Shown piece by piece: positions 1 to 64,000 of a DNA stretch of 64,000 nt. Every line of letters begins with the position of its first letter. Position 1 is the first letter of the stretch. This stretch comes from Cyanidioschyzon merolae (taxonomy: Eukaryota). The stretch lies in the NCBI GenBank assembly GCA_000091205.1, contig AP006498.2. The stretch is one strand, 5' to 3'. Under the pieces are notes generated by a model. The model was not told the origin of the DNA. It saw only the letters and a program-made list of their open reading frames with translations, and made no database searches. Both the position numbers and the translations under genes were made by a program.

Positions 1-651
1 AGCGCGCCGCTCGATGGGTACCAATGCCTACGAGCGGGGAGCCGCATCAGCGACTGCGTCTGCCGTGATGCGGGTGGATAATTCAACCCTGTGGACGAGC
101 AGCTCGGGTGCGAGTTAGTAGCGAAGGTCGACCAAAGACGTCGCCGAGGGATACGGAGTCCAGTTCATTGGTATTATGCGCACCACAGAGACAGGTCGTG
201 GAATCTCGGGCTCCAACTGATAAAAAACGAGTCGTGTTCAACGGTTTCTCGTTCCGGAGATCTCAACGTGTCATGCACAGGCGTGCACGATTCGCTCGGC
301 ATGCGTTATCGTGCGGGTCACCTTTCCGTACGCTCTATGCAGCATCTTGGGCTGAGGTCGCCATAGCGTCTCGCGGCATTGACGCCTATCACTTCGTCGC
401 ATGGAAGATCGAAGGGAATTGGCTCGAGATCATCACACAGTGTCTCCAATCATCTTGCAGCCGGCGGTCTCACGTGCGCACGGAATTTGTCCTTTCGGGG
501 AGTTTCGCGCTCGATACCAATGATCATGGATAAACCACGGAGATGTGACGTAAGACCAAGATCTTTGTGGGGACGCGTCCAGTCGACGCTAGCCGCCAAC
601 GGGCAGCGCACGCTGCGCTACGCGATCCACGGGTAACGATCCTCTCCCCTT

Positions 652-1689: not shown

Positions 1690-1849
1690 AGTTGTTGTTT
1701 AGGGTACTCGCAACAAGTTTACGCGAACCCGTCTATGACTGGTGTCGCCGGAGAAGTAGTAGCAGCACAAATAGCAGCTGCACCTCACGGGAAAGAATGG
1801 TTCAAAAGGCGTTCGCAGCGCAGCGCAGCGCAGCGCTGATCGGAATCGA

Positions 1850-2050
1850 CGGCGGCTGCGGCGCGATCACACGATGCACATCGATGCGCTTTCCGATGCA
1901 CATCGATGCGCTTTCCGATGCACATCGTTGCGCTTTCCGATGCGCTTTCCGATGCGCTTTCCGATGCGCTTTCCGATGCGCTTTCCGATGCGCTTTCCGA
2001 TGCGCTTTCCGATGCACATCGTTGCGCTTTCCGATGCACATCGTTGCGCT
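1850..2050. repeat. Minisatellite: 14-bp unit gcgctttccgatgc (about 7 tandem copies) nested in 22-bp cacatcgatgcgctttccgatg units
   Basis: Direct tandem repetition is visible in the sequence. It generates several overlapping spurious ORFs (FRCAFRCAF / MRFPMRFP / SDALSDAL). It lies in the intergenic region between the FBPase 5' end and the MAP65-like 3' end. Confidence 0.9.
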
Positions 2051-2488
2051 TTCGCAGCAGCGCAAGTTGCGCATTCGAAGGATTCCAGGCGGAATTTGCG
2101 TGCGTGTCGAGCGTCGAGGTCAGATAACATGCATAACAGCAAACGGTATGCAAGTGGTGTTGCTTGACCCGCGACCAACGAGTGCTACGGAGGCCTTGAC
2201 CTGCTCCTGGGACGGTGATGTGGCGGTGGTGCTTTCTTTCGCATGCTGCATGCACGAGCGCTGGACTTGATACATGGGAACCAGCAGTCCTTAGTCAATG
2301 TTCGGGGGTAACGCAATCACATTCGTTCACGCAGCCGCTTGCATACCGTCCACCGGGAAGCGGACGACTAGGGGCGTTAGGCGCTCGCGGACAAACGCTT
2401 CAGCGAAAACGCGCATCTGGAGCCAAGACGAACGGACGCGACGCCAGAGGCAGGTTCAGCAACTAGATCACAACGCTTCCGATACGCG

Positions 2489-9490: not shown

Positions 9491-10246
9491 CTAAGCTTCG
9501 GCGTGTGCACCTGTTTTGGAGGCCCAGCGACTTGCTCCATACGCTACTACGGGCCTTTGACGCTTGCACTCCTTCAAGGCGCTCAACTGACTGAAAAGAA
9601 TGTTGAATGTGCGCTGCTTCCCACAGTACAGGTTCATACGCTGGAAAGCCCACCGGGGCTTGGTATATTCTCTCCAGAGCGCCTCCCAATGAGCAACGCG
9701 AACTTTCATGAACTCCCGAAAAGCTCGATAGCCCGCTCCGCGGCACGTCATCTCGCTGGTCGCTTCCAGGTGATCCTTCACTCGTGCATTCCATGTCTGA
9801 ATTTTCTTCCTTGCACTCATGATGCCGGATTCTCGGTAGTATCTCGCCCTCGAGAGCTTGAAAAGACGAATGTCTTTATGAGGCAAATTACCGTCAGTAC
9901 CATCTTCCGCTCGCTTGGGTGCTGCGATGGCTATATGATTCGTGTTTCCAGGGTCTGTGCCAACGACAAAGCCGTTATCCTCCACCTCCTGCGTCACAGG
10001 ATCCTCCTCCTTCTCATCTTCATGGTTCGTCACGGGCGCAGCCGAGGGCGGAACTGGACGATCTGTCTTCAAGCGCCGATAGTGTACATACATGGTTACT
10101 CCATCGGTCTCAATCATCCCAGTGAATAACTTTTGCTTGCTCGTATTGAGACGTTTGAAATCGAAAATATTCTTCCAGTACGTCTCCCGGTTTTCGCCGG
10201 AGGATTCCTCCCTGCTAACATCGAACTCCGAACTGATCTCCTTCAT
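9491..10246 (-). pseudogene. Truncated TnpB/Fanzor-like nuclease ORF (RuvC-I only) of copy A
   Basis: The 251-aa ORF aligns to the N-terminal half of the copy B protein ([22 protein letters not shown]; [24 protein letters not shown] RuvC-I; [28 protein letters not shown]). It contains only one unit of the 25-aa repeat. It terminates after VVAYGASRW and lacks the zinc finger and RuvC-III. Confidence 0.7.
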
Positions 10247-12140
10247 GATGCACTAGAAGACCTTGGAGTCGATAGTCACAAAACGTGACTTGATGTTGCA
10301 CAACGGAACGACGTTGAAGCGCGTCCCCCATTAGGAAAGCCTTCCGTTTCTCCGAATCTTCGTTTTTTGTCCCACTAAGCTTCATCTCTGCCTTGCCTTC
10401 GAGTTCTCGATCCAAAAACACGAAATACCTCAATATGAGGAGGTAGTATCTTTCCTTATCTTTTTCAACTCTGATACCTTTTCTGCTGGATTCGCCAGCT
10501 CCAGTACCGTACGATGCTCTTGCATGACCGCACGGATTACAGAAGCTTCATTCGTGCTCTCGTTTGACGCCTTCTTGTCTACAAATTGGATCTCATCTTC
10601 ACGCTTGTGATCTTTCGTGATGCCATTGATTATCGCCCATATTCCTTTGCGAGAGGCACCCGGGTAGAGCGCAAACACGGCGCCTATCATGAAACGTTCG
10701 AGGTTCACGATCATATGTTTCTTCAGGTTCGTGAGGTACTTCATGGCCCCGTAGGTAAACATACCCCAGTATCCCATGTATCGAGTGCCGTTGAAGTGGT
10801 ATTCGGAGTGATTTTCGTGGAAGGCATGCACTAGCTCATTTTCCCTCCGCGCTTCCCCTTTACTAAGCATCAGGTGCCGAAGAATGGTCTTGTCGAAAAA
10901 ATCGCCCGGAACCTCGACTGTTTCCATGTCCGTCACGTCGAGATACATCTCCCTCGACATATGCATTAGCCCTGACGAAGCCTTTATAATACTCATGGAG
11001 TACGACTTAACACGGTTTCTAGTTGCCTCCCGTAACTTCTCCACCCACGCATTCTTGATATGTTTAAGAAGACAGGCTTTCACCACCGTCACGTAGGACT
11101 CTTGTTTTTCGTGCAGCTTCTGACGTGGGCTCTCCCTCTTCTGCGTCTTTGTCTTTTCCTGTTACTCTCCGCCGGGCACTGTTTTTCGTTTTTTTTCTGG
11201 CAGCCGGCGACACCTGCCTTCCAGGATCCTCCACTTGCTTTTCCAGAAATTTCCTTTTTTCGGAAAAGAACGCGCTTTGAACGCTTCTGTTATTAACTGC
11301 GAAAAATCAACCGAATACACTCATTAGAGCGTTGAAACACGACTGAGATGAAGTAATATATTTCGCTACGATTCCAATGCAAATACACGTTTTACGTTAA
11401 AACAACAAGTCAACGAATGGTCAGGATTGCGTTTCCCTTCAACGGCGAGATGCGCGTCGTACCTCATGCCTGCCGGTAATGGAGGTGCGCATCTCGACCG
11501 CACTATATGCAGCAAAGAACAGAGACTAGCTACTGACTAGCAATGAGATGACAATTTCATTCCCACTCTACAGTAAACGTTAAAAGGGCAAATGTTGCCA
11601 GATCGTCGAAAGCTTACCTTCCAGGCGAAAGGTCCAGCGAGCCGGACGAGTCTCCGGGGGTTCGTGCTTCATGGCTTCCCCTTCGCCACCCCAGTGCCAG
11701 GTGCTTTAGTGATATCTGACCAACTCATCCCCGAAGCGGTTTATTCCGGCATTAAGGGTGCTCAGGCAGCGTCTGGGCGTCGCCCGGCTTGCAGTTATCT
11801 CCTAGTATATCGCTTCGCGCTGCCGCAAACCGTATGTCTATCTGTACAAATTGCAGGCTCCCAGAAAGACAATTAGCCCCGATTCCGTATCACGTGTAGT
11901 ATTCCCCGAGCCGACGCCCCCGGTAGTGTGGTAAATATGTTCTGTTTCCGTGATACATCTGAACCATCGGTAGAGGGGCTATTCCGGGTGCTCACGGCCG
12001 GCAAGCGGCGCATGAGAGAACGAATGAAACGACCAGAACGTTCGAAAGCATGTATAAGTAATGGAACTTGGAGGTAGGGTGCAGCATGGCGGACGCTTCC
12101 CCGATTGCCAATTCCCATCTCGCAATCCGGGATCCATAGT
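9500..12140 (-). mobile_element. Fanzor/TnpB-like element, copy A: older, 3'-truncated and degenerate
   Basis: Nucleotide and protein homology to copies B and C. The TnpB-like ORF stops after RuvC-I and lacks the RuvC-II-to-RuvC-III part. Homology to copy B begins near 9510 (aligning to B at about 49230). It then continues to about 11783, with a roughly 220-bp insertion in A, and from 12008 to 12140. The 5' module (about 10960-11783) is about 97-99% identical to copy B, whereas the coding body is about 75-80% identical. Confidence 0.75.
10430..11092 (-). pseudogene. ORF-A homolog of copy A (upstream module of the Fanzor-like gene)
   Basis: The 220-aa ORF has a nearly identical N-terminal 45 aa and about 65-70% identity thereafter to ORF-A of copy B. 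The junction with the downstream nuclease frame carries an A5 run instead of A7. Confidence 0.6.
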
Positions 12141-12242
12141 CCGTGGAAACTTTTTGGCATCGAAATAGGAATCCGGCACGGGTCCAGAGGAGGCGCTTCC
12201 GCGGCACCAGCGCAGCGCAGCTGTCCCTTGGCAGGTACAAGA

Positions 12243-27224: not shown

Positions 27225-27830
27225 TCGGCCCGTGAGGCGCTTGTTCCACTCTTTCATCTCAATTGGGTTCCACAACCAGGTACATGGAACCAAATGATTT
27301 TTTCGCAGTTTATAGCAGACTTGTCGGAAGTGTTCTCATTGGAAGGAATAAAAAATCCAAGGGAAATGAATGGATGTGAAAGTCGACGGACGCACAGGGC
27401 CGTCATTGCCGGATTCACCAAGGGAAACGAAAAAAGACCTCTTCTTGCCGACCGTCGAGTGAAGAAGAGCAAGTGACAAAGAAGAAGGAGATATCCGAGA
27501 GCGCTTGTTTGCCCAACGAAATGGTGGCGAGATGTTAGTGACACAGAGGGTACGAGTTCTAGAAAGCCTTGCATTCATGAGTTCCACCAGAGGCAATGAA
27601 CGTAAAGAGTTCGTATACCTGGACTTTACGCCGCCATCAATACCAGACAGTGTACGGTGCTGAAGACGAGACCCGAGGAGCTGACGCGAGCAAACTTCAT
27701 GGGGCAGCCTCTGATGCTCGGAGTTTGTCCGATGAAACAGTAACCGATAGCAGGCGGCGGGCAGAACAAGGCAGGGAGGCGTCTTCGAATGGGCATAAAT
27801 GTAACCTCCATGGTTGTGAAAAAGCTTTTG
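27225..27830. repeat. Dispersed repeat family X (copy 1)
   Basis: About 600 bp is homologous to 51990-52600, for example acccgaggagctgacgcga...ggcagggaggcgtct and gtgaaagtcgacgg...ccgtcattgccg. Confidence 0.6.
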
Positions 27831-32379: not shown

Positions 32380-34689
32380 ATGTGAAACAGAGGAAGCAAG
32401 TTGCCCATCAGTTGGCGGTTAACTGAGTAGGCGTGCTCAGAAGCAACACAACGCTTGCATATCCGCTCGAACGCACGCAGGTCGATCGGCACGCTCTGGG
32501 TTTTGGCATGGCGCACTTCCCGCCAAAGTGCGATAACAAGTTCCTCATTTTTGTTTGTTTGATGAAACGTTTACATTGTCCTCGGATCCCAGGTTGCACG
32601 ATGAATTGTGGCTATCGTGAAAGGGTTCATCATGTTGCACCCAAATTTTAAGTACCATGACGCATGCGTCCTCTCGGATGTCCAGGTCGTTCTGTGCGTT
32701 CGATCGTGCATCGAATGCCTGCGCTGAGCACCTGCAATAGCGCCTATGCTGCTGGTGCGGATGCAACACGGAGACAGAGCGGCATTGCCGTACCAATGAG
32801 GTCGTCGGCTCGAGGCGTGGTTCAACGCATTCGGTACTGGGACTCATCATACTTCTAGGAGCCTGAAAGGCTGTGCAGACAGACGTCCCCCCAGCGACCA
32901 CGCGAAGTGACATACTAGGAATCAACAGCGACCGGTGCGTCGCCGAGAAGCAGCCTATCCGCTGCGATTCCCAGACTAGACTGCGTTATGGACAAACTGC
33001 TCAGGTCTCGGCACTGCACCCGTCGCTGCAGAGGCACATGCAGCGGATGCCCGGTTGACTCGAGCGGCCGCAGGACCTTCCGCCTAGATGGTAAACTTTC
33101 GGACATAGGGAAAACTTTCCCCCTGCCAACGCTTACCGTAGAGGAAGAACGAAATCGTTATCGAGTTGCTAGTACGTTTTCCGTTTCTGATCTGTTGTCA
33201 ATGTTTACTCGATCGGATGCACGCTGAGGCTAGCAGCGCACCGCCGCGCCGTCCTAAAGCGATCAAAAAAGGCACAGTGTCGGAGGCGTTGCCGGACCGA
33301 TCAATTCGCTTTATGCAGCGGGAATACTGGAATGGAGGTCGTACAACGTGGAAACGTATGCACGGTACGAGCTGTCGCTTGGATGGGCATCGCCAGCATG
33401 AACGCAAGCAGGCAAGCTCGTCCCGTGTCACTGTTGGTGATTCCGCTCCCGAGTTGTTCACCTAGACTTGTCTTTTCAAATTTGCACAGGATACATGGGT
33501 ACCCGGCTAGAACCATTGCTTCTACATCAAAAGAAGCGCTGCGGCGTTGAAGCACGATCGGGCTGATGCCACAGACACTCCAACAGACATTGAGCGAAAA
33601 CCATGGTACACAAAATTAGGCAATGATTTGTGCGATCTTTCCATAACCTGCGAGCCATTGGAGACGAAAGAAGCAATTGAACCTCCGCAGGCAAAGGTTG
33701 AAGGGCCCTCATTTCACGCGCTCTACAGAATTCGAGCGGTTTCTGCGAACAACAGCTAAGAAATCGTTTCAATGATGCGACGCATATCAAAGTCTGGGTA
33801 TAGCATGGACCCTTTTTGCCCAAGTTTCCTCGCGACATGGAAAAAGCACAATGGGCGCAATAGACTGCACCTGAACACTCCAGACACATGAGCGCGAAAA
33901 ATAGCATCCTCGCGCTCGGCTACGTTTCTCCTGGACCTCTTGTAGATTAGAGTGGAACGCTGAACTGTGCGCGTTGTTCCAGTATTTCGATTTTTTTCGA
34001 ACCTTCTTTTGTCTACAGCTGCGACATTTGAACTTTGTCAATAAGAGCTCACGGATGAATACGTAGTTTTGGGATTCTCTGTCGTTGATTCGGTGTGACC
34101 TCGTCGCTGCTTCGTCGCTGGATTTCGTTGAATCAACGGGGTTACGATATATCTCGATGCCCTCGAACATGCTTTCGTAAACGAATCGATATCATTTTGC
34201 CATTTCATGCATAGAAGCCTCCGATCCTCTCCTTCCCTTCCATGACGCATGCTCAATTCAGACATTTTTCAAGTTCTCGATCTTTCTCTTCCGAGGCAAC
34301 TCCTGGGTGCAGCGGTTCGCGTCACCGGATTGGCAAGGGAAAATTCTCGAAGTCGCCCCTTGAAGCCTTGTTCAAAAGCGTATATGGAAAGCTCGCTGAA
34401 CTCTATGCGCAAAAGAATAGATACCGTTTGATAGACAAATCAGCAGCCGTTCATGGGCATCGACGAAACGGCAGGCAACAGCAGCTGGTACCACCCGCGG
34501 GATACGCTCCCAGGCGCTTCGGCCTCTTCGGTTTCCATGAAAGAGCGCCCCGGACTCAGCACTGATTTATCGCAGCAAACCGCATCCACTTTCGAATGCG
34601 TTACAGCTTTGCACAAAGAGAGCATTGACGAATCGGAATTTCTGGATCTCTTCTGCAAGCTGCATATTCCTTCTTGTACTTGTTCCAGC

Positions 34690-46426: not shown

Positions 46427-48412
46427 CTAGTCGACTTCTTCGACAGTTGGGCCGCTGCCAGTGCCAGCGCCGCCAGCACCAGGCATGCCGCCAGCTCCAG
46501 GCATGCCGCCAGCTCCAGGCATACCACCGGCACCTGGCATGCCATCTGCAGCGCCGCCAGCTTGCTGGTACATGCGAGTGAAGATGGGCATGGTAACGCT
46601 TTCCAGCTCTTTCTGCATGTTCTTGATCTGATCGAGCGAAGCAGTGGCGCCGTTTTCTTCGAGCCATTCCAGCACTTCTTTGGTCTTGTCAAGAATCTTC
46701 TGCTTGTCGCCGGCGCTGAGGCTCTGAGCTACCTGTTCCTCTTCCACGGTGCGCTTCGCCGAATAGGCCAGCTGCTCGAGCGAGTTGCGCGCCTCGACCG
46801 TGCGTCGGACTTCTTCATCCTTCGCCTTCATGGCCTCTGCCTCCTTCACCATGCGCTCAACCTCCGCCTCGCTCAGCCGACCCTTTTCATTCTTAATCGC
46901 AATCCGTTCACTCTTACCGGTAGTCTTGTCAACTGCTGTAACATTCAGGATGCCGTTCGCATCGAGGTCAAATGTGACCTCAATCTGAGGCACACCCCGT
47001 GGTGCCGGCGGAATACCTGTCAAGGTGAACTGTCCCAACAGGTGGTTGTCCTTGGTCATAGCGCGCTCGCCTTCATAAACTTGAATCGTGACAGCAGGCT
47101 GATTGTCGGCATAGGTTGTGAAGATCTGGCTCTTCTTTGTCGGGATTGTGCTGTTCCGCGGAATCAAAACAGTCATGACACCTCCGGCGGTCTCAATACC
47201 GAGCGAGAGAGGCGTCACGTCGAGCAACAGAATGTCCTTGGTCGTTTCAGACTCATGGCCCGACAAGATTGCAGCCTGGACGGCTGCTCCGTACGCCACC
47301 GCCTCATCCGGATTGATTGACTTGCAGAGCTCCTTGCCATTGAAGAACTGGCTAAGAAGTTGCTGAATCTTTGGAATGCGTGTCGAGCCGCCGACGAGAA
47401 CGACGTCGTCAACTTGGCTCTTCGACAAATTCGCGTCCTTCAGGACCCTCTCAACAGGATCGAGGGTGCTGCGGAACAAATCTCCGCAGAGCTCCTCGAA
47501 CTTGGCTCGAGTGATTGAGCTGTAAAAGTCAATGCCGTTGTAAAGGGAATCTATCTCAATCGTCGCTTGCGTCGCCGACGACAGCGTCCGTTTCGCCCGT
47601 TCGCACGCCGTCCGCAATCGCCGCATGGCTCGATTGTTCCCAGTAATGTCTTCCTTGTACTTGCGCTTGAACTCCTTCACGAAATAATCCACCATTCGCG
47701 AATCAAAGTCCTCGCCACCCAGATGAGAATTGCCAGAGACTGCGCGCACCTCGAAGATGCCCGAATCGACGCTCAGCAAGCTCACATCGAATGTTCCACC
47801 ACCAAGGTCGTAAATCAGCACATTGCGCTCCTTGTTATCACTCGTCTTCTTATCAATACCATACGCGATTGCGGCTGCCGTCGGCTCGTTGATGATGCGA
47901 AGGACGTTCAGACCGGCGATCGTACCAGCATCCTTTGTCGCCTGGCGCTGGGAATCATTGAAATATGCCGGCACTGTGATAACAGCATCAGTAACCTTCG
48001 TTCCCAGGTATGACTCCGCAATATCCTTCATTTTCGTCAACACCATGGCACTGATCTCCTCCGGGGAGAACCGTTTCACGTCGCCATGTGCGACAACCTG
48101 GATGAGCGGCTTGTCACCCGGGCCTTGAACGACCTTGAATGGCCAGTGCTTCATATCCTCCTGCACGGTAGGATCAGAGAACTTACGTCCAATGAGACGT
48201 TTCGCGTCAAAGACAGTATTCTCGGGGTTCAGCGCTACCTGGTTCTTCGCGGCGTCTCCGATGAGGCGCTCCGTCTCCGTGAAGGCAACATATGACGGGG
48301 TCGTCCGGTTGCCCTGCTCGTTCGCAATAATCTCAACCTTGTTGCCTTCCATAACGGCAACGCACGAGTAGGTCGTGCCAAGGTCAATTCCGATCGCCTT
48401 TGCCTTTGACAT
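46427..48412 (-). CDS. HSP70: Cytosolic heat-shock protein 70 (HSP70/HSPA family)
   Basis: [26 protein letters not shown] and [14 protein letters not shown] signatures are present. A C-terminal (GMPGAG)n repeat is followed by the EEVD cytosolic tail. The 661-aa ORF is uninterrupted with an ATG start. Confidence 0.95.
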
Positions 48413-48667
48413 TGTTCAAAGCTCGTTAACAGGAACTATTCCACGAACACGAGTTAAACGTCCAGTCTGAACACTCTGTCTCACTTGCTCCGCAACAAGA
48501 ACAATATGCTCCCGTACCGGAACTCGCTCCTCTGACACACGTGTTCTAGCGAACGGCGCGTGTTTGACTATGAACACCAATGACTCTTAAGTAGACGCCC
48601 ATTGTATGAATGGGGCCGCGACACGATCGCTAGCGACGCGTCGATCGGCGCGCCGCAGCGATCGTGC

Positions 48668-48690
48668 GCCGACGGTTCGCGAAGGATTCG
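48668..48690. promoter_or_regulatory. Candidate heat-shock-element-like dyad in HSP70 upstream region
   Basis: gTTCgcGAAggaTTCggaAGc contains an inverted TTC/GAA dyad about 260 bp upstream of the HSP70 ATG and about 25 bp from the Fanzor-like element end. The spacing is imperfect (one 3-nt spacer), so this is weak. Confidence 0.25.
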
Positions 48691-48873
48691 GAAGCTTTGC
48701 CGCGAAAAACGCCAGCGGCGTACAGTAGTGGCAGCGACCGCGCCTTAGACAAATCGTTCTCAGCTGACGTGCAGACGCCTCCCAGCCTTTCTCGACCGGC
48801 CACCTACTACTGCTTCCAACTTCTTCTCATATAGTTCGACTTTGAGGGGTTGTCCAACAAAGTTCTCTCTTGT

Positions 48874-50274
48874 CTATTCTGGAGATCTGTTCTCCAGCAC
48901 CGCACATCTCCGTATATTGCTAGGGGCATGAAAGTCACGATTCACACACTCCATACGGTTCTTGCCATCATTGGTTGTACTTACTAACGCAGGCAATCCT
49001 CGAACGTTCGCCCTCCTTTCCATTTGCTCCTCTGTTAGCGGTCCGTACTTTGCGATTTCCTCAGGGCACCGCTGGCACTTGTCTATCTCGACCGTCTGAA
49101 GTGTACAACCCAGCTCGTGGTGTGTATAGGACGTTCGGAACTCATCTACAGGTATCGTGACGAGACGCCTTCCACACTCCTTGTACGTTCTTGTTGTTGG
49201 AGCTGGTATGCACCCCTTTTGGGTCTTCCATCGCCCTGCTCCATACGCTACGACGAGCCTTTGACTCTGGTCCCCGTTGAGCGCACGCAACTGATTGAAA
49301 AAGTTGGCAAACGCCCGCTGCCTCCCACAGTGTAGATTCATACGCAGACGGGCCCACCGAGGCTTTGTATATTCCTTCCACAGCGCATCCCAATGGGCAA
49401 CACGAACTTCCATGAATTTCCGAAAAGCTCGAAAGTCCGCTCCTCGGCTCGTCACCTCGCTCATAGCTTCCAGGTGCTCTTTCATTCCTGAATTCCACGT
49501 TTCGATTTTCTTCGTCGCATTTATGACACCGGATTCTCGATAGAATCTCGCTCTCGAGAACGTCAACAGACGGATGTCTTTCTGACGTAAGTTGCCGTAA
49601 GTACCATCTTCCGCCCGCTTCGGTGCTGCGATGGTTATGGTATTTGTGCTTCCGGGGTCCGTGCCAACGACAAAGTCGATATCCTGCACTTTCTGCTTCT
49701 CAGAACCCGCCTTCTTGTTCTCTTCATTCTTTACCGCGCCAACGACAAGGTCGTTATGCTCCACCTCCTGCATCGCAGGATCCGCCGTCTTCTTATCTTC
49801 ATCCTTCGTCACGTCAACGACAAGGTCGTTATCCTCCACCTCCTGAATCGCACGTTCCTCCTCTTTGTTTTCTTCATCCCTCGTCACGGGCGAAGTCAAA
49901 GGCGGAACTGGCCGATCTGTCTTCAACCGCCGATCGTGTACACAAAAGGCTACCCCATCGGTTTCGATCTTCCCAGTGAATACATTTTGCTTGCTCACTT
50001 TGGGACGCTTGGAATCGGAGATACGCTTCCAGTGGGTCTCCCGGTTTTCGCCGGTGAAATCCTTCCTGCTAACACTGAACTTCGGTCCGATCTCCCTCAT
50101 GATGCCGTAAAGGACGCCGGAGTCGATACTCACGAAGTATGACTTGATATTGGACAATGGAACCACGCCGGAGCGCTTCCCCACTAGGACAGCCTTCCGT
50201 CTCTCCCACTCTTCATTTGTCTCTTCACTCAGCTTCATCTCCGCCTTGCGTTCGAGCTCTCGGTCCAGAAACAC
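48874..50274 (-). CDS. TnpB/Fanzor-like RuvC-fold nuclease homolog (OMEGA-type RNA-guided endonuclease family)
   Basis: RuvC-I: [20 protein letters not shown] (D at about residue 206). Zinc-finger region: [13 protein letters not shown]...EIDKCQRC...MEC. RuvC-III: [15 protein letters not shown] (compare TnpB DRDxNAAxNIxxxG). The canonical RuvC-II glutamate is replaced ([11 protein letters not shown]). A 2-unit 25-aa acidic repeat sits just N-terminal to RuvC-I. The ORF track start is GTG; the first in-frame ATG is at codon 13. Confidence 0.75.
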
Positions 50275-50308
50275 AAAGTACCGTAGGACGAGGCGATAGT
50301 ATCGTTCC

Positions 50309-50947
50309 TTATCTTTTTTTCAACTCTGATATCTTTTCTGTTTGATTCGCCAACCCCAGTACCGCACGGTGCTCTTGTACAGTCGCCCGGATCACAGAAG
50401 CTTCATTCGCGCTCTCGTTTGACGCCTTCTTCTCGACAAATTCGACCTCATCTTCATGCTGTCGATCTTTCGTGATGCCATTGATAGTCGCCCATTTTCC
50501 TTTGCGAGAGATGCCCGGGCGGAGTGCAACCGCGGCGCGGATCACGAAACGTTCGAGGTTCGTTGTCAAACGGCTCGTCAGGTTCGTGAGGTACTTCATC
50601 GCCCCGTGGTCGTAAATATCCGCGCCACCCCTGTATCGGGTACGCTCGAAGCGGAATGCCGCGAAGTTTTCGTGGAGGGCATGCACTAGCACATTTTCCC
50701 TCCACGTTCCTGCTGTACAAAGCATCAGGTAGAGAAAAATCGTCTTGTCGAAAACCTCGTCCGGAATCTCGACCGATTCCATGTGCGTCACGTCGAGATA
50801 CATCTCCCTCGCCAGATGCATCAGTCCTGACGAAGCCTTTATAATACTCATGGAGTACGACTCAACACGGTTTCTAGTTGCCTCCCGTAACTTCTCCACC
50901 CACGCATTCTTGATATGTTTAAGAAGACAGGCTTTCACCACCGTCAC
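50309..50947 (-). CDS. ORF-A: probable N-terminal extension/exon of the Fanzor-like protein, separated by a +1 frame break at an A7 run
   Basis: The 212-codon ORF ends ...ISELKKR-stop at an AAAAAAA run. With A6 the frame would read ...[28 protein letters not shown]... directly into the nuclease ORF. The frame is also open upstream of its GTG start-type codon. A 77-codon KR-rich ORF (50944-51177) lies in another frame across the poly-T runs. Confidence 0.55.
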   Translation of the reverse strand: MTVVKACLLKHIKNAWVEKLREATRNRVESYSMSIIKASSGLMHLAREMYLDVTHMESVEIPDEVFDKTIFLYLMLCTAGTWRENVLVHALHENFAAFRFERTRYRGGADIYDHGAMKYLTNLTSRLTTNLERFVIRAAVALRPGISRKGKWATINGITKDRQHEDEVEFVEKKASNESANEASVIRATVQEHRAVLGLANQTEKISELKKR

Positions 50948-51919
50948 GTAGGACTCTTGTTTTTCGTGCAGCTTCTGACGTGGGCTCTCCCTCTTCTGCG
51001 TCTTTGTCTTTTCCTGTTACTCTCCGCCGGGCACTGTTTTTTGTTTTTTTTTCTGGCAGCCGGCGACACCTGCCTTCCAGGATCCTCCACTTGCTTTTCC
51101 AGAAATTTCCTTTTTTTCGAAAAAGAACGCGCTTTGAACGCTTCTGTTATAAACTGCGAAGAATCAACCGAATACACTCATTTGAGCGTTGAAACACGAC
51201 TGAGATGAAGTAATATATTTCGCTACGATTCCAATGCAAATACATGTTTTACGTTAAAACAACAAGTCAACGAATGGTCAGGATCGCGTTTCCCTTCAAC
51301 GGCGAGATGCGCGTCGTACCTCATGCCTGCCGGTTATGGAGGTGCGCATCTCGACCGCACTATATGCAGCAAAGAACAGGACTAGCTACTGACTAGCAAT
51401 GAGATGACCATTTCTTTCCCACTCTACAGTAAACGTTAAAAGGGCAAATGTTGCCATATCGTCGGAAGCTTACCTTCCAGGCGAAAGGTCCAGCGAGCCG
51501 GACGAGTCTCCGGGGGTTCGTGCTTCATGGCTTCCCCTTCGCCACCCCAGTGCCAGGTGCTTTAGTGATATCTGACCAACTCATCCCCGAAGCGGTTTAT
51601 TCCGGCATTAAGGGTGCTCAGGCAGCGTCTGGGCGTCGCCCTGGTCGCAGCGCATTCGGTGGTACGCCTACGCTGTTCTGTCCCTGTGCAGCATCCGCTC
51701 CAGCGGTACAAGCGCTGCGGCGGGTGCTCACCGCAGGCTCGGCGCACGAAAGAACGCACAAATCGACCAATCTAGCGGAAAGGGAGTCTAAGTAATGGAA
51801 CCTGGAGGCAGGGTGCACCATGATGGGCGCTTTCCCGAAAGCCGATATCCATCCCGCAATCCGTGATCCACGGTCAACGAATAGGTTTTCTCAGACCAGA
51901 AAAAGAACAAGACACGACG

Positions 51920-52600
51920 CACATCTCGCCGTTGAAGGGAAACGCGATCCTGATCATGAACGTGTCGCTCTAACGGACAAGACGTGTTAGGGTTGAAGGG
52001 GCAGCAAGGTCTAGTCTTTCAATGCATTCGTGTTCCACTAGCCTCGTAGAGTATTCAAGTGGTTTTTCGCGGTTAACAGCAGATGCGTTCCAAGTGCGTT
52101 CGTTCTCAAAAAAAATAGAATGCAATGGTATGGACGTGAAAGTCGAGGATACCGGAGGACCGTCATTGCCGAGTTCGACAAGCAAAATGAGGAAATCCTC
52201 TTCCCGCCGACCACCTATCCAAGAAGAACAACGGGTGACGACAACGAAGACGATGACGATGACGACGATGCGATATAGGCGAGAAAAGGTGTTTGCTCAC
52301 CGGTACGTTTACGAAACTGTGGTGGCACAGAGAGCACGAGTTCGAGGCGTCTTCGCAAAGCGAGGTTCCACCATCGGCCATAAATGCAAGGAGTTCGTCG
52401 ACCGAGACCCCAACGTCGCCATCATGATCAGATAATATGCAGAGCGAAAGACTTTACCCGAGGAACTGACGCGATCTGACTTGCGGGGCAGTCTCTCAGG
52501 GTCTCCGTACACAACCAGAAGCTGAAGCCGACAGCAGGGCCCGGTCCAGCACGGCAGGGAGGCGTCTGCGGGTAGATATCCATGTATACGACATGGTCGT
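51920..52600. repeat. Dispersed repeat family X (copy 2), beginning with an inverted copy of a roughly 230-bp module of the Fanzor-like element 5' region
   Basis: 51920-52145 is the reverse complement of 51095-51320. The match is near-perfect over the 40-bp core tcaggatcgcgtttcccttcaacggcgagatgcgcgtcgt and about 70% elsewhere. 51990-52600 is homologous to 27225-27830. Confidence 0.6.
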
Positions 52601-56379: not shown

Positions 56380-56990
56380 CGGCACCAGCAACTCGAGAAC
56401 GATGGGTTTCTCTCTCTACGGTAAGTGCTGAAAGGGGGAAGAGGTTTTCCGTATTTTCGAAACTTTATCCTATAGATGGAAAAGCAGCAACTCGAGAACG
56501 ATGGGTTTCCATCTCCACGGTAAGCGCTGAAAGGGGAAGAGGTATTCCGTATTTTCGAAACTCTACCCCATAGATGGAAAAGCAGCAACTCGAGAGCGTT
56601 TGCTTTCCCTCTCTACGGTAAGTGCTGAAAGGGGGAAGAGGTTTTCCGTATTTTCGAAACTTTATCCTATAGATGGAAAAGCAGCAACTCGAGAACGATG
56701 GGTTTCCATCTCCACGGTAAGCGCTGAAAGGGGGAAGAGGTATTCCGTATTTTCGAAACTCTACCCCATAGATGGAAAAGCAGCAACTCGAGAGCGTTTG
56801 CTTTCCCTCTCTACGGTAAGCGCTGAAAGGGGGAAGAGGTATTCCGTATTTTCGAAACTCTACCCCATAGATGGAAAACCAGCAACTCGAGAACGATGGG
56901 TTTCCATCTCCACGGTAAGCGCTGAAAGGGGGAAGAGGTTTTCCGTATTTTCGAAACTTTACCCTATAGATGGCAGATCTCGCGTGCTCG
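56380..56990. repeat. About 100-bp tandem repeat, about 6 copies
   Basis: The unit aactcgagaacgatgggtttccatctccacggtaagcgctgaaagggggaagaggtattccgtattttcgaaactctaccccatagatggaaaagcagc recurs near 56388, 56489, 56586, 56686, 56787 and 56885. It lies in the MgtE upstream region and generates long spurious ORFs on both strands. Confidence 0.9.
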
Positions 56991-58391
56991 ACGTGTCTAC
57001 CGGGCTTGTGCTCCGTGCGACTCTGCAGTGGCGGGTGCTCTTGCGCGACCTGAGTAGCATACCCGCTCCTAGGCCCAGAATAAAGTGCGTTGGGGACGAG
57101 TGGCTGTGCTGTTGCCACTGCACTCGCCAGGGCAGAGACGCGCGGACCTACAACACCGGAGCATTGTCGGCCTTGCGGGACCTTTCGTACAGAAGCTAGG
57201 TTTGCGACTGTAAGGAAACCTTCACCACTTTTCAGCTCTTACGGTGGAGTGGGAACGAAGTCATGCAAAGTAGTTTGTTCGTGTTTCATTTCTGTTCTAT
57301 TACCCTAATAGTTGATGTCCAGTGAAACGGAACGCATGCCCGGGTTGCGCTGCCGGCGCGGCAATTGTTGATACAATAACATCGATGAATCGAACCAGAA
57401 CGCTTGGGATGCGTACGTTCGTGCTGTACGCAATCAGGAAAGTGACCAGCATTCCCTAGAGACGTCCATGCGCCCCGGAAGCTGCAGCCCGTTTCCCAGC
57501 CTGCACCGGGAGTTTGACTGAGCGAACGACCCTGCAATTGCCGAGCCTACCGCAAGCGCTTGCTGTGGCGTTGCAGGCGCCCAACTAGTCGCCTTGTGGA
57601 GACAAAAAGCGTCTGCGTCGTATCCCAGCGGGAATCTCATCGAGGCTCAGGGCCATGCCCGCCTGGCACACGCCCCTTCGTTGTCCGTGCGAATTTCGGG
57701 CCGCATGGAGGTCGTGCTGCGGCGCGAACTCGCGGCATCGTCGTATCTGCTCGCTGAAGAGCGACCGCCTGCGGTCGCTGCTTCCTCCGCATACCGTGCA
57801 ACTGCATTCTTTCTGCCAACGGGGGTGACGTGCGCCAGTTCGGCATCGCCCGCGTGCTGCAAATTTGAAACCGTCACCGGCAAAGGATTTCTGTCCGCCT
57901 AAGTAGCTTCTCTAGGCACAGGCGTCTCCATCGGGAGCTGGGTACACGTGCTGGGTTCCGGATGAGGGTGCATACCCAGTCTCGCCACAATGCCCGCTCG
58001 CTGGACGTATCCGCGTGACGCTGTGTGCCTCGTTTGCCTCCAGGCCGGGTTTCTGGTAGTTGAGGACACCGCGCAGCCTGCTCATATGCAAGCCAGCCGA
58101 TCCTGCGTGCATTTTCGTGATCGAGTGCTCGCGTGCGTGCTATCAGTAGCCCGTCTGCGTGCCATCCGATTCCACGAGGAATCTTCAGAACAAATGCGCG
58201 CACCTACAGCATCAGTGGCAACGAGTAAGCACGAGTACCGCAGACCTCGAGTGCAGACTGCTGTATGCCTTGCATGCAGCGCGTCGCGCTGTCGACGCTG
58301 CGGCAGGGCGCCTTGTGCGCAAATCGGCTGCGACGTCTGTACTCGCGTCGAGACGCCTTTCCAGTAGGCAGCGTTCGGGAAAACTGCAGCC

Positions 58392-60393: not shown

Positions 60394-61212
60394 TTACATA
60401 TCGCGAAACTCTATTCGACGCGATTTTAGAAGCGCCCACTTGAATCGTTTCATGTAAAGCATCAGACCTGCCAGAATGCCCAGAGAAACCATGGTTTCAA
60501 CACCCATGAGCTTGCGCTGATCGTGCTCCGGCTCTGCTGCCCAGCTCAGAAACGTAGCCACATCTTTCGCCATCTGACTTGTTGTGGCCGGAGTTCCGTC
60601 GTCGTACTCGACACCGTCATCGTAGAGCGCTCGGGCCATTGCAATCTGCTGGCCAGGGAAGTATGGATTGTAGTAGAGGCCTTCGCGAACGTGCACACCG
60701 GCCGGTGGATCACGGTAACCAGTCAGGAGTGCGAAGATGTAGTCGGCACCACCATGACGTGCCTTGGTGATCAAAGATAGGTCCGGCGGAAGCGCTCCGT
60801 TGTTGGCGTAGCGCGCGGCCTCTGCATTTGGATATGGCGCTGGGAAATAGTCCGAGAGTCGGCCAGGACGAGTAAACATCTCGCCTTCGTCGTTAGGCCC
60901 ATCCTCAACCTCAACCTCCTCCGCTAGCTGTTTCGCCTCCTCCTCAGTGAAGGCAACACCCACCAGGTTGCGAAAAGCGACTCGGTTCATCGAGTGGCAC
61001 GAAGAGCAAACATTCTTGTAAACTTGGTAGCCACGACGTATGGAAGCTGCGTCAAACGCTGACAAGGGACCGCGGTGAGACCAGGGGTATTTTGGTGGTG
61101 GCAAGTGGTCCTCTTCGGCGAGCGCGGGCTGTGCGCTCATCAGAAGATACCCGGCACCCGAGACGCCCGCCGCGAAAGCCGCGCCGTTCAGCAGTCGCGT
61201 TAGGACCTGCAT
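60394..61212 (-). CDS. CYC1: Cytochrome c1, heme protein (mitochondrial complex III subunit)
   Basis: Heme-binding CSSCH motif, [53 protein letters not shown] and a C-terminal transmembrane anchor are present. The ORF track extends to 61314; the likely ATG is at about 61212 (MQVLTRLL...). Confidence 0.9.
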
Positions 61213-61793
61213 TCCTTTGACGCGATTCTTCTCGATATAATTGAAGCGTTGTCCAGTAACCTGAAAGATCGGGCGCTGCCAGAAAACTCGTCCGCAACAA
61301 GGCACGAAATGCACGCCCTGTCGAAGCGCAACAGCACACCGGTACAGTGTTAGCGGCCTTTCACCGCAGAAACTCGCACTGATGGTGCTTTACGGAAGCT
61401 TCTCTTCGTCGCGCCTTGAGCTCTGTTCCCGGTCGAAGCGAGGCTCCCCGGGTCTGCAAAGCTCTAATAAAGCCACGTGGGCAAAGAGTCGTGCACTGCA
61501 GCAGCTGCAGCACGAACCAGATATGCTGCACCCGTTCAGAGCAAGTGCAGTGCCTCGTCTCTACTGCCGATAACGGATCCGGAGACCGACGACGGTAGAG
61601 AAACCAAACGCCTTCACAGAGTCGAACGATGCCGACTGTGTACAGTAGTGGCGGTGAACGCGCCCTAGACTTAAAGTCGCCAATTGACGTGCAGACGCCT
61701 CCCAGCCTTTCTCGACCGGCCACCTACTACTGCTTCCAACTTCTTCTCATATAGTTCGACTTTGAGAGGTTGTCCAACAAAGTTCTCTCTTGT

Positions 61794-63419
61794 CTATTCT
61801 GGAGATCTGTTCTCCAGCACCGCACATCTCCGTATATTGCTAGGGGCATGAAAGTCACGATTCACAAACTCCATACGGTTCTTGCCATCATTGGTTGTAC
61901 TTACTAACGCAGGCAATCCTCGAACGTTCGCCCTCCTTTCCATTTGCTCCTCTGTTAGCGGTCCGTACTTTGCGATTTCCTCAGGGCACCGCTGGCACTT
62001 TTCCATCTCGACCGTCTGAAGTGTACAACCCAGCTCGTGGTGTGTATAGGACGTTCGGAACTCATCTACAGATATCGTGACGAGACGCCTTCCACACTCC
62101 TTGTACGTTCGTGTTGTTGGAGCTGGTATGCACCCCTTTTGGGTCTTCCATCGCCCTGCTCCATACGCTACGACGAGCCTTTGAGTCTGGTCCCCGTTGA
62201 GCGCACGCAACTGATTGAAAAAGTTGGCAAACGCCCGCTGCCTCCCACAGTGTAGATTCATACGCAGACGGGCCCACCGAGGCTTTGTATATTCCTTCCA
62301 CAGCGCATCCCAATGGGCAACACGAACTTCCATGAATTTCCGAAAAGCTCGAAAGTCCGCTCCTCGGCTCGTCACCTCGCTCATAGCTTCCAGGTGCTCT
62401 TTCATTCCTGAATTCCACGTTTCGATTTTCTTCGTCGCATTTATGACACCGGATTCTCGATAGAATCTCGCTCTCGAGAACGTCAACAGACGGATGTCTT
62501 TCTGACGTAAGTTGCCGTAAGTACCATCTTCCGCCCGCTTCGGTGCTGCGATGGTTATGGTATTTGTGCTTCCGGGGTCCGTGCCAACGACAAAGTCGAT
62601 ATCCTGCACTTTCTGCTTCTCAGAACCCGCCTTCTTGTTCTCTTCATTCTTTACCGCGCCAACGACAAGGTCGTTATGCTCCACCTCCTGCATCGCAGGA
62701 TCCGCCGCCTTCTTATCTTCATCCTTCGTCACGTCAACGACAAGGTCGTTATGCTCCACCTCCTGCATCGCAGGATCCGCCTTCTTCTCATTTTCATCCT
62801 TCGTTACGCCAACGACAAGGTCGTTATGCTCCACCTCCTGCATCGCAGGATCCGCCGCCTTCTTATCTTCATCCTTCGTTACGCCAACGACAAGGTCGTT
62901 ATGCTCCACCTCCTGCATCGCAGGATCCGCCGTCTTCTTATCTTCATCCTTCGTCACGTCAACGACAAGGTCGTTATCCTCCACCTCCTGAATCGCACGT
63001 TCCTCCTCTTTGTTTTCTTCATCCCTCGTCACGGGCGAAGTCAAAGGCGGAACTGGCCGATCTGTCTTCAACCGCCGATCGTGTACACAAAAGGCTACCC
63101 CATCGGTTTCGATCTTCCCAGTGAATACATTTTGCTTGCTCACTTTGGGACGCTTGGAATCGGAGATACGCTTCCAGTGGGTCTCCCGGTTTTCGCCGGT
63201 GAAATCCTTCCTGCTAACACTGAACTTCGGTCCGATCTCCCTCATGATGCCGTAAAGGACGCCGGAGTCGATACTCACGAAGTATGACTTGATATTGGAC
63301 AATGGAACCACGCCGGAGCGCTTCCCCACTAGGACAGCCTTCCGTCTCTCCCACTCTTCATTTGTCTCTTCACTCAGCTTCATCTCCGCCTTGCGTTCGA
63401 GCTCTCGGTCCAGAAACAC
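61794..63419 (-). CDS. TnpB/Fanzor-like RuvC-fold nuclease homolog, copy C (541 aa; repeat-expanded)
   Basis: Same motifs as copy B ([13 protein letters not shown]; [13 protein letters not shown]). It differs by five 25-aa [25 protein letters not shown] repeats and a few substitutions, including Cys-to-Phe in the zinc-finger region (MEC to MEF). Confidence 0.75.
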
Positions 63420-63453
63420 AAAGTACCGTAGGACGAGGCGATAGTATCGTTCC

Positions 63454-63996
63454 TTATCTTTTTTTCAACTCTGATATCTTTTCTGTTTGATTCGCCAACC
63501 CCAGTACCGCACGGTACTCTTGTACAGCCGCACGGATCACAGAAGCTTCATTCGCGCTCTCGTTTGACGCCTTCTTCTCGACAAATTCGGCCTCATCTTC
63601 ATGCTGTCGATCTTTCGTGATGCCATTGATAGTCGCCCATTTTCCTTTGCGAGAGATGCCCGGGCGGAGTGCAACCGCGGCGCGGATCACGAAACGTTCG
63701 AGGTTCGTTGTCAAACGGCTCGTCAGGTTCGTGAGGTACTTCATCGCCCCATAGTCGTAAATATCCGCGCCACCCCTGTATCGGGTACCCTCGAAGCGGA
63801 ATGCCGCGAAGTTTTCGTGGAGGGCATGCACTAGCACATTTTCCCTCCACGTTCCTGCTGTACAAAGCATCAGGTAGAGAAAAATCGTCTTGTCGAAAAC
63901 CTCGTCCGGAATCTCGACCGATTCCATGTGCGTCACGTCGAGATACATCTCCCTCGCCAGATGCATCAGTCCTGACGATGCCTTTATAATACTCAT
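63454..63996 (-). CDS. ORF-A of copy C (partial; truncated by window end)
   Basis: 180 aa, about 97% identical to copy B ORF-A. The same A7 run lies at the junction with the nuclease frame. Confidence 0.55.
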   Translation of the reverse strand: MSIIKASSGLMHLAREMYLDVTHMESVEIPDEVFDKTIFLYLMLCTAGTWRENVLVHALHENFAAFRFEGTRYRGGADIYDYGAMKYLTNLTSRLTTNLERFVIRAAVALRPGISRKGKWATINGITKDRQHEDEAEFVEKKASNESANEASVIRAAVQEYRAVLGLANQTEKISELKKR

Positions 63997-64000
63997 GGAG

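Follow-up and report, generated by a model that had tools for sequence, protein, structure and literature searches.

The gene studied here very probably belongs to CMe-1A, a Fanzor1 element of the red alga Cyanidioschyzon merolae or a close relative, and alignments place its RuvC-II glutamate at a relocated position, E378, in a D-E-D triad, with the three copies found in the window (the whole 64,000-nucleotide stretch of DNA analysed) being decayed pseudogenes. Strand beta-4 of the predicted RuvC domain carries no glutamate, its place being taken by the conserved G345, and the third acidic residue would be E378, at the end of the following strand. By analogy, D206, E378 and D447 would make up the D-E-D triad responsible for Mg2+ binding and DNA cleavage, and analogy together with conservation suggests that an intact member would be a nuclease guided by RNA transcribed from the element's conserved 3' end. 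A +1 shift of the reading frame at an A-run disables copies B and C, the former having in addition lost its start region and acquired an early stop, and copy A is truncated before E378. Residues are numbered according to the 466-aa ORF of copy B (48874..50274, minus strand).

Three copies of CMe-1A in the window

The CMe-1A (CMe-1) element was described by Bao & Jurka (2013, Mobile DNA 4:12; PMC3627910), and its 3169-bp consensus, taken from Additional file 2 of that work, was compared with the window by blastn. Copies A, B and C, all on the minus strand, were 81-88% identical to the consensus over up to 3.1 kb, and on this match the window element is CMe-1A of C. merolae, a Fanzor1 element. 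Copy A (9524..12162) corresponds to consensus positions 1-2627 with 83% identity, the nearly full-length copy B (48710..51893) to positions 4-3145 of 3169 with 81-88% identity and a 125-bp deletion equivalent to consensus 241-365, and copy C (61638..64000), which ends at the window edge, to positions 1151-3137 with 85-88% identity. Copy C is 97% identical to copy B and shares its A7 frameshift and its D/E/D residues; its ORF lies at 61794-63419 and that of copy A at 9491-10246, both on the minus strand. The 734-aa consensus protein shares exact motifs with the window copies, including FVNRDFNAAINI. A similarity of about 80% to the consensus is typical of CMe-1A copies, and the window copies agree both with this value and with the many diverged copies (~80%) and few intact ORFs reported previously (PMC3627910). 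About 150 copies of CMe-1A exist, and hundreds of related stretches occur in metagenomes. The window has 55% GC and contains long intron-free ORFs, among them one for a cytosolic Hsp70 ending in EEVD, and this composition is compatible with the genome of C. merolae.

CMe-1A was described as a single-exon element without terminal inverted repeats, sharing its 5' ~635 bp with TE-N2_CMe (PMC3627910). In agreement with that published shared region, copies A and B have 98-99% identity over their 5' ~700 bp, compared with 78-88% in their coding sequences. A search for terminal inverted repeats around copy B returned a single strong pair (51274-51317 and 51914-51957), which was discarded as the element termini because it stems from a partial copy of the 5' region that lies next to the element in inverted orientation. 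Tandem Repeats Finder located in copy B three units of an acidic 75-bp (25-aa) tandem repeat (49663..49888, minus strand) coding for a disordered linker directly before RuvC-I (residues 124-191, pLDDT <50). Copy C has six such repeats against three in copy B, whose linker contains two 25-residue insertions more than the consensus protein. Compared with the consensus, the window copies are decayed single insertions with frameshifts, stops, the 125-bp deletion, truncation and added 25-aa repeats.

Assignment to Fanzor1

Searches with the single frame-corrected 690-aa protein returned no match in Pfam or in the PDB, so a profile was required. Conservation was counted over 81 sequences with 27-40% identity, and the search profile was built from 80 relatives. 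Against the PDB, this profile retrieved Fanzor1 chains only, from Parasitella (9cf0, E 2.5e-21), Spizellomyces (8gkh, E 2e-12) and Guillardia (9cer, E 6e-6). A search of phage DNA gave no match. The 466-aa ORF of copy B, as given by the ORF list, starts within the WED domain, of which it encodes the latter half, and continues through the disordered linker with its acidic repeats and the RuvC domain to a degenerate TNB region. Its AlphaFold model had a pLDDT of 80.6 and a pTM of 0.75, values that refer to this ORF alone; the N-terminal ~225 residues of the protein were poorly modelled in a first prediction, which was made from a shallow alignment of close relatives, had a pLDDT of 32 and was discarded. 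The top seven Foldseek matches of the model in the PDB were all Fanzor1 (E 1e-10 to 8e-8, TM 0.45-0.59), the best structures being 9cey, 9cf1, 8gkh and 9cer, whereas Cas12 phi, Cas12f, TnpB and Fanzor2 matched much more weakly (for the Fanzor2 structure 9B0L, E 6e-3 and TM 0.24). Canonical TnpB (ISDra2, 8H1J) and Cas12f have the same RuvC/WED core fold, with a Foldseek E of 7e-4. On profile and predicted fold, the protein is a Fanzor1, a eukaryotic homologue of TnpB.

The best matches in both profile and fold were the Fanzor1 of Spizellomyces punctatus (SpuFz1, 8GKH, 9CEU-9CEZ) and that of Parasitella parasitica (PpFz1, 9CF0-3), which are 12-16% identical to the window protein in structural alignment. 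Both share with it a D-P-x motif at RuvC-I, a glutamate in the context (D)E(F/Y)(R/K)TS and NRD at RuvC-III. Unlike these proteins, the window protein has the disordered acidic tandem-repeat linker, and CMe-1A lacks inverted repeats such as the 30-nt ones of the SpuFz1 element.

Decay of the copies

All three window copies are pseudogenes that still display active-site residues of the family, and they are classified as such because of frameshifts and stop codons and not because of active-site loss. The N-terminal part of the copy B gene, covering WED/REC, was found in the ORF list and by tblastn with the intact family member P0001 and the CMe-1 consensus protein at 50309..50947 (minus strand), in another frame than the 466-aa ORF, and its homology extends upstream to about 51067, across an in-frame stop and a frameshifted start region. 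Three-frame translation located the shift between the two ORFs in an A7 homopolymer (50314..50320, minus strand). The equivalent run is A6 in the consensus, where it reads TTGAAAAAAGATAAGG, and in intact relatives, and A5 in copy A. Among orthologous contigs from JGI metagenomes, L049 and L048 carry A7 and the intact L001 and L004 carry A6; an assembly error was rejected as the origin of A7 since two independent orthologous contigs have the same run. Both A7 contigs also have a Trp-to-stop change, and one of them E378D. Besides lacking its start (ATG) region and containing the early in-frame stop, copy B differs from the consensus by additional lesions. Copy A has several frameshifts and stops, is truncated at its 3' side just past RPVVAYGASRW and lacks both E378, with its VDEFRTS context, and the RuvC-III Asp. 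The dN/dS ratio between orthologous copies was 1.3-2.3, calculated from few substitutions, and was 0.37 when copy B was compared with an intact member of the family.

A slippery A-run followed immediately by AGA TAA, shared by copies B and C, both with all three catalytic residues intact, and by orthologous contigs, might indicate that these two copies are functional and that A7 is bypassed by +1 ribosomal frameshifting or transcriptional slippage. This is very unlikely, as the consensus and intact relatives are read in a single frame through A6, the A5 of copy A would need the opposite shift, copy B has neither an ATG region nor an N-terminus free of in-frame stops, the orthologues have acquired the Trp-to-stop change and in one case E378D, and orthologous copies show a dN/dS of 1 or more.

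A relocated glutamate in the RuvC active site

The RuvC beta-4 strand, RLVVAYGAG, is encoded at 49234..49260 (minus strand) and coincides with a strand of the model at residues 340-345; the 9-mer VVAYGAGRW, with which the first-pass annotation had described this site, occupies 49228-49254, reaching 6 nt beyond the start of the 49234-49260 span. The G345 codon (49240-49242, minus strand) sits, to within one residue, where TnpB and Cas12 have the canonical RuvC-II Glu. This position is Gly in 80 of the 81 relatives (27-40% identity), with Ala and Tyr/Phe before the Gly, and the missing glutamate is therefore not a chance loss. Copy C is identical to copy B at this strand, and copy A reads RPVVAYGASRW, its ORF stopping a few residues on. 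The translations of A, B and C thus bear out the initial observation that the canonical RuvC-II Glu is missing in all three copies. [quoted passage not shown] Absence of the canonical glutamate is a normal, published hallmark of Fanzors and not the mark of a dead or odd nuclease design. Replacement of this residue by Gly or Pro, together with an alternative Glu, has been described for all Fanzors (PMC10530073, PMC10711439, PMC13565253), which confirms, and widens to the whole group, the rearranged site that the first-pass annotation had named for Fanzor1.

The codons of the predicted triad are all on the minus strand, at 49657..49659 for D206 (RuvC-I, in GTDPG), 49141..49143 for E378 (in VDEFRTS) and 48934..48936 for D447 (RuvC-III, in NRDFHA). 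D206 is conserved in 81/81 relatives and E378 is likewise invariant among these 81 diverged sequences (27-40% identity in the alignment), and the D447 column contains Asp in 79/81 and a gap in the other two. GTDPG is present in copies A, B and C, its Asp and Gly being invariant and its Pro at least 90% conserved over the 81 aligned sequences; a DPG motif is typical of Fanzors (PMC10711439). The RuvC-III Asp is found in an RD..A..NI helix in copies B and C and is missing from the truncated copy A. In the HMM alignment, D206, E378 and D447 pair with residues 777, 935 and 1000 of the 8gkh chain, which are D383, E541 and D606 of native SpuFz1 (the offset of 394 holds for all three), the catalytic residues of that enzyme (PMC10432273, PMC11423790). 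In three Fanzor1 proteins of solved structure, the catalytic Glu is the residue that the profile alignment pairs with E378. E378 lies 33 residues after G345, just past the model strand at residues 372-376, and D447 is at the start of a model helix (residues 446-459). Judged by alignment and model, E378 is the relocated ('alternative') RuvC-II glutamate and the predicted third catalytic residue. Of the two explanations originally offered for the missing glutamate, relocation is thus the one favoured by the invariance of E378, and the comparison with Fanzor1 proposed as a check places this residue on the rearranged-site Glu of SpuFz1, E541.

The other explanation, a catalytically inactive, domesticated RNA-guided DNA binder of the TldR or Cas12c/m kind, is not supported and is highly improbable for the family. 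It would account for the absence of the canonical Glu, for the clade-wide loss of the zinc finger and for the failure of a single sequence to match Pfam or, directly, the PDB, but experimentally active Fanzors share the same 'missing' Glu, and dead derivatives typically lose catalytic residues, whereas here the alternative Glu, present in every one of the 81 relatives, pairs with a residue of demonstrated catalytic function, and the two Asp vary little or not at all among them. The gene moreover belongs to a transposable element present in about 150 copies and does not occupy one conserved host locus, and its window copies are disabled by frameshifts and stops. That E289, E301 or E387, the substitutes put forward in the first-pass annotation, should be the third catalytic residue in place of E378 is extremely improbable, since E289 is found in 17/81 relatives and E387, only 9 residues past E378, in 27/81, and E301, conserved in 75/81, pairs with a Phe in SpuFz1 (LWKEY versus RRKEFY) and lies off the RuvC sheet, in a helix (residues 295-302) of the helical segment inserted between strands 3 and 4, while E378 is present in 81/81 and aligned with the catalytic Glu of the three solved proteins.

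SpuFz1 likewise has Gly at the place of the canonical Glu (VVMGDW, versus VVAYGAG here), and its spacings are similar, with 158 residues from the first Asp to the Glu against 172 here, and 65 from the Glu to the second Asp against 69. Fanzor2 (ApmFz2, 9B0L) and prokaryotic TnpB2/pro-Fanzor proteins have the same rearranged RuvC site. In ApmFz2 the site is D324/E467/D501, with E467 located ~50 residues C-terminal of the canonical place, and the E467A substitution abolishes cleavage. The relocation distance is about 45-50 residues in Fanzor2/TnpB2 versus 33 in the window protein. In canonical TnpB and Cas12f, by contrast, the Glu is on beta-4, ~50 residues before the zinc finger, where the window protein has Gly and would draw its Glu from the next strand.

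The conserved 3' end as a candidate guide RNA

Judging from column conservation and fold, the 3' end of copy B (48710..48873, minus strand) is a candidate for the omega-RNA scaffold and the right end of the element. Approximately 165 nt past the copy B stop codon showed 80-99% column conservation among 45 aligned copies, which ceased sharply at the end of the published consensus, ...GAAAGGCG. Part of this stretch is coding in the consensus, whose ORF runs further. RNAalifold yielded an almost empty structure when unrelated flanks were included and, after trimming to the 266 conserved columns, a strong consensus structure (-61.8 kcal/mol), in which 88% of cells were paired, compared with 40-59% in slid controls. 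Covariation was weak, with few compensatory changes, and the RNA is for this reason not claimed as proven. Over the whole window, Rfam gave no match at the gathering threshold and a tRNA scan found none.

A clade without the zinc finger

In SpuFz1 and PpFz1 a C4 zinc finger (CPRC...CxNPNC) immediately follows the relocated Glu, and no such finger is found in the clade of the window protein. We used the regular expression of Yoon et al. 2023, in which the alternative Glu stands six residues before CxxC...CxxC, and the C4 motif of Bao & Jurka 2013; the window protein has His385 at the position of the first zinc-finger Cys and a CQRC further on, and does not contain the C4 arrangement. Because the expression was built for TnpB and pro-Fanzor searches, this does not exclude membership. 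In 78/81 relatives no CxxC occurs anywhere from the Glu to the RuvC-III Asp, with the E(F/Y)xTS context retained, and from these alignments we read the clade as a zinc-finger-less Fanzor1. Fanzor2 and TnpB2 differ from it in being smaller, IS607-linked proteins that retain the zinc finger.

Clustered at 50% identity, the CMe-1 clade comprises about 1,490 representatives, nearly all of them metagenome proteins. CMe-1A has neither a transposase nor target-site duplications, and the host alga is haploid and efficient in homologous recombination. It is conceivable, if rather unlikely, that the clade represents a zinc-finger-less Fanzor1 branch in which the invariant D-E(alt)-D triad still supports RNA-guided nuclease activity while the TNB/target-loading domain has been remodelled, and that CMe-1A spreads or persists by means of the nuclease alone, through RNA-guided homing.

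Discussion

The finding is an ordinary one, as a relocated Glu is a published hallmark of Fanzors and the window copies are broken insertions of an element described in 2013. That description predates the discovery of the nuclease activity and does not discuss the position of the Glu (PMC3627910). What has killed the window copies is commonplace damage (frameshifts, stop codons, truncation), and the case matters little past correct annotation. In scans of eukaryotic genomes, loss of the RuvC-II Glu should not be read as inactivation, and the Glu of (D)E(F/Y)xTS should be checked instead. An unannotated protein family that carries only a DUF label in Pfam is now linked to Fanzor1, and the absence of the zinc finger across this large, mostly metagenomic Fanzor1 clade is one thread that may be worth following up.

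The RuvC-II site in the three element copies

Translation of 49234-49260(-) gives RLVVAYGAG, and the 9-mer VVAYGAGRW, which the first-pass annotation had named as the strand devoid of the RuvC-II glutamate, lies 6 nt further on (49228-49254). RLVVAYGAG belongs to a 466-aa ORF (48874-50274, minus strand) in which D206 of the GTDPG motif is encoded at 49657-49659(-), G345 at 49240-49242(-) and D447 of NRDFHA at 48934-48936(-). Self-comparison of the window revealed three element copies, namely copy A (9.5-12.2 kb, minus strand), copy B, which carries this ORF, and copy C (61.6-64.0 kb, minus strand), which is 97% identical to copy B and cut by the window end. The residues of copy C at the site of the missing glutamate are identical to those of copy B, while copy A reads RPVVAYGASRW and ends a few residues later, thus lacking the RuvC-III motif. 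The translations of all three copies confirmed that no glutamate occupies the canonical position; the accompanying claim of two intact aspartates is true of copies B and C but not of copy A.

Protein family, fold and catalytic triad

The 466-aa ORF makes up the C-terminal two thirds of a longer gene: deletion of one A from an A7 run (50314-50320) joins it to the upstream ORF 50309-50947(-). The joined 690-aa protein had no Pfam match and no direct PDB sequence match. JGI data contained 43 close relatives, among them P0001, an uninterrupted 752-aa ORF whose sole label was a weak precomputed DUF8286. An exhaustive HMMER search with the family profile retrieved 1,490 cluster representatives with E <= 1e-3, and lengths of 600-700 aa were common among them. 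In an alignment of 79 full-length representatives with P0001, the invariant columns included D484, G486 and E656 of P0001, with D725 and G623 nearly invariant. The profile of this alignment matched only Fanzor1 chains in the PDB, those of Parasitella parasitica (9cf0, E 2.5e-21), Spizellomyces punctatus (8gkh, E 2e-12) and Guillardia theta (9cer, E 6e-6). The AlphaFold model of the window ORF was confident with a deep alignment (pLDDT 80.6, pTM 0.75) and its best Foldseek PDB matches were these same structures (E 1e-10, TM 0.54-0.59), with Cas12 phi, Cas12f, ISDra2 TnpB and Fanzor2 far weaker. Homology and conservation thus show that the window protein has a Fanzor1 fold.

HMM alignment to 8gkh placed three conserved family positions on chain residues 777, 935 and 1000, which correspond to native SpuFz1 D383, E541 and D606 after subtraction of the 394-residue MBP offset, checked independently on D-P-N (D383, N385), LLDEYKTS and WNRD. 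These SpuFz1 residues are catalytic and coordinate two Mg2+ ions (PMC10432273; PMC11423790), and their equivalents in the window are D206, E378 and D447. E378, in VDEFRTS (49141-49143, minus strand), pairs likewise with the glutamate of LIDEFRTS in the Parasitella enzyme and of VPEHYTS in that of Guillardia. Over 81 sequences sharing 27-40% identity, D206 and E378 were conserved in all, D447 in 79 (the other two being gaps), and the canonical RuvC-II position was glycine in 80. The AlphaFold model has LVVAYG as strand E340-345, VTIPV as strand E372-376 immediately ahead of D377-E378, and D447 at the start of helix H446-459; this predicted topology is as expected for a glutamate that has moved one RuvC strand on, from strand end to strand end. 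By homology and conservation, D206-E378-D447 is the counterpart of the SpuFz1 triad. A relocated glutamate had been proposed from the sequence, and E378 fits that role; the three residues suggested for it do not, since E289 and E387 are conserved in only 17 and 27 of the 81 sequences, respectively, and E301, although present in 75, pairs with a phenylalanine of SpuFz1 and falls within the helical insertion.

The rearranged site that the first-pass annotation had correctly named for Fanzor1 is the published general description of Fanzors. Fanzor nucleases have Pro or Gly in place of the RuvC-II glutamate and all have an alternative conserved glutamate downstream, and E467A abolished cleavage by ApmFz2 (Jiang et al. 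2023, PMC10530073). A Fanzor2 structure has the triad D324/E467/D501, the Fanzor signature was defined as a DPG motif plus an 'alternative E' (Yoon et al. 2023, PMC10711439), and a 2026 review restates the same rule for Fanzor1 and Fanzor2 (PMC13565253). The other suggestion of the first-pass annotation, that of a dead, domesticated binder, finds no support.

Identity and surroundings of the element

CMe-1A, an element of Cyanidioschyzon merolae, numbers about 150 copies with roughly 80% identity each to a ~3-kb consensus; it lacks terminal inverted repeats and has no determinable target-site duplications. Its 734-aa protein is encoded by one exon, a few copies remain intact, and its 5' 635 bp are 95% identical to another element, TE-N2_CMe (Bao & Jurka 2013, PMC3627910). 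Alignment of the 3169-bp consensus (Additional file 2 of PMC3627910) to the window assigned all three copies, on the minus strand, to this element: copy A at 12162-9524 (consensus 1-2627, 83% identity), copy B at 51893-48710 (consensus 4-3145 without 241-365, 81-88%) and copy C at 64000-61638 (consensus 1151-3137, 85-88%). The consensus protein includes the stretch FVNRDFNAAINI, and its SELKKDKERCY spans the site of the frameshift correction in the copy B gene. Over some 700 nt upstream of the ORF (50900-51650 versus 11040-11785), copies A and B share 98-99% identity, although their coding parts share only 78-88%; we attribute this to the TE-N2_CMe relationship, suggesting recent homogenisation or exchange of a TE-N2_CMe-like 5' module.

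At 55% GC, the window contains long ORFs without introns, one of them a cytosolic Hsp70 ending in EEVD, and these traits fit C. merolae. Copy B ends ~300 bp before the Hsp70 start codon (gene 46427-48412, gap 48412-48710) and copy C ~300 bp before that of cytochrome c1 (gene 60394-61314, gap 61314-61638), each upstream of its neighbour and on the same strand, and both therefore lie in promoter or 5' regions of housekeeping genes. A stand-alone match at 32565-33173(+) (consensus 9-614, 78%) probably represents a solitary TE-N2_CMe that lacks a Fanzor gene. Next to the 5' end of copy B, consensus 683-938 recurs as an inverted, partial copy (51907-52162, plus strand), which gives rise to a 44-nt, 95% inverted repeat (51274-51317/51914-51957); this repeat could pass for transposon termini but was rejected as such. 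Four older, strongly decayed fragments belonging to this or a sister Fanzor1 family, at 22494-23275(-), 8286-8736(+), 27630-27794(+) and 52313-52576(+), have 26-51% amino acid identity with stops and frameshifts; the first retains VSYGAGQ and IPIDELRTT, but its DPG and RuvC-III motifs are gone. A 99-bp tandem array at 56386-56973 (5.9 copies, 90% matches, 198-bp higher-order period) overlaps weak matches to the CMe-1A 5' module at 56877-57129.

Decay of the window copies

Copy B has a frameshifted start region (LEKQVEDPG, in a different frame, for consensus MEKEVEDPG), a stop codon in frame (GGE*QEK versus SPEEQEK in the consensus), the A7 frameshift and a stop 46 codons short of the consensus end. 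Copy A has several stop codons and the 3' truncation. The A run is A7 in copy B, in copy C (near 63459-63465) and in two orthologous metagenome contigs, A6 in the consensus and intact relatives, and A5 in copy A (near 10455), so that the same run slipped both ways independently. An assembly error was ruled out as the source of A7 by these contigs, L049 and L048, which are 96% and 95% identical in nucleotides to the copy B locus, unique flank included; both also share a Trp-to-stop change, with E378D in addition in L049. A7 could conceivably be read through by slippage or +1 frameshifting, but the remaining lesions of the copies count against this.

For copy B, dN/dS was 1.3 and 2.3 against L049 and L048, respectively, both from few substitutions, and 1.4 against copy C, from which it has very few differences; against intact P0001 it was 0.37 over the C-terminal 466 codons and 0.92 over the N-terminal part. 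Among the loci retrieved from JGI metagenome contigs, only about 3 of 81 had an intact family ORF of more than 650 codons. The window copies cannot encode the full protein and are decaying pseudogenes that still display the ancestral active-site residues. Copies B (49663-49888) and C (62583-63033) also hold a 75-bp tandem repeat, in three and six copies, respectively, encoding a 25-aa acidic unit in the disordered linker ahead of RuvC-I, and copy B has two extra 25-residue insertions in this linker relative to the consensus protein.

A candidate omega-RNA at the conserved 3' end

Across 45 aligned copies, conservation was 80-99% over the final part of the ORF and the ~165 nt past the copy B stop, and it broke off abruptly where the published consensus ends (...GAAAGGCG). 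Cut to conserved columns, the alignment gave a consensus fold of -61.8 kcal/mol in which 88% of cells were paired, versus 40-59% with the partners slid. Double changes were few (11 pairs), the covariation score was reached by 5 of 500 shuffles, and part of the stretch is coding in the CMe-1A consensus. This conserved end resembles, and may correspond to, an omega-RNA scaffold plus right end as in SpuFz1 and ApmFz2. Copy B carries a 5-nt deletion that damages the last hairpin, which in copy C is closer to the consensus. The first ~8 nt past the consensus end are semi-conserved among copies (TTTGTTGY-like; alignment columns 259-266; about 61630-61640 in copy C), suggesting either a slightly longer element than the consensus shows or a target-site preference.

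Comparison with described Fanzors

Published definitions place the relocated glutamate six residues ahead of a C4 zinc finger. SpuFz1, PpFz1, GtFz1 and TnpB have this finger (CxxC...CxxC) after the glutamate, whereas the CMe-1A clade does not: 78 of 81 sequences have no CxxC between the glutamate and the RuvC-III aspartate, and the clade consensus reads DEFRTTxxxxxDxxxLxxV...VRGLLWCxST...KFVNRD. In the window protein, His385 takes the place of the first cysteine, and the CQRC found in an insertion is unrelated. Most relatives have zero to two cysteines in the E378-D447 stretch (49120-49143 and 48934-49140). Because profile, fold and triad agree, we take the absence of the zinc finger as a variant within Fanzor1. 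The missing canonical glutamate and the element itself are already known, and this absence may be the only part of the locus undescribed so far. Fanzor family members cleave target DNA adjoining a TAM by a two-metal RuvC mechanism, guided by an RNA that the element's 3' end encodes, and by analogy intact CMe-1A copies would carry out the same RNA-guided RuvC cleavage.
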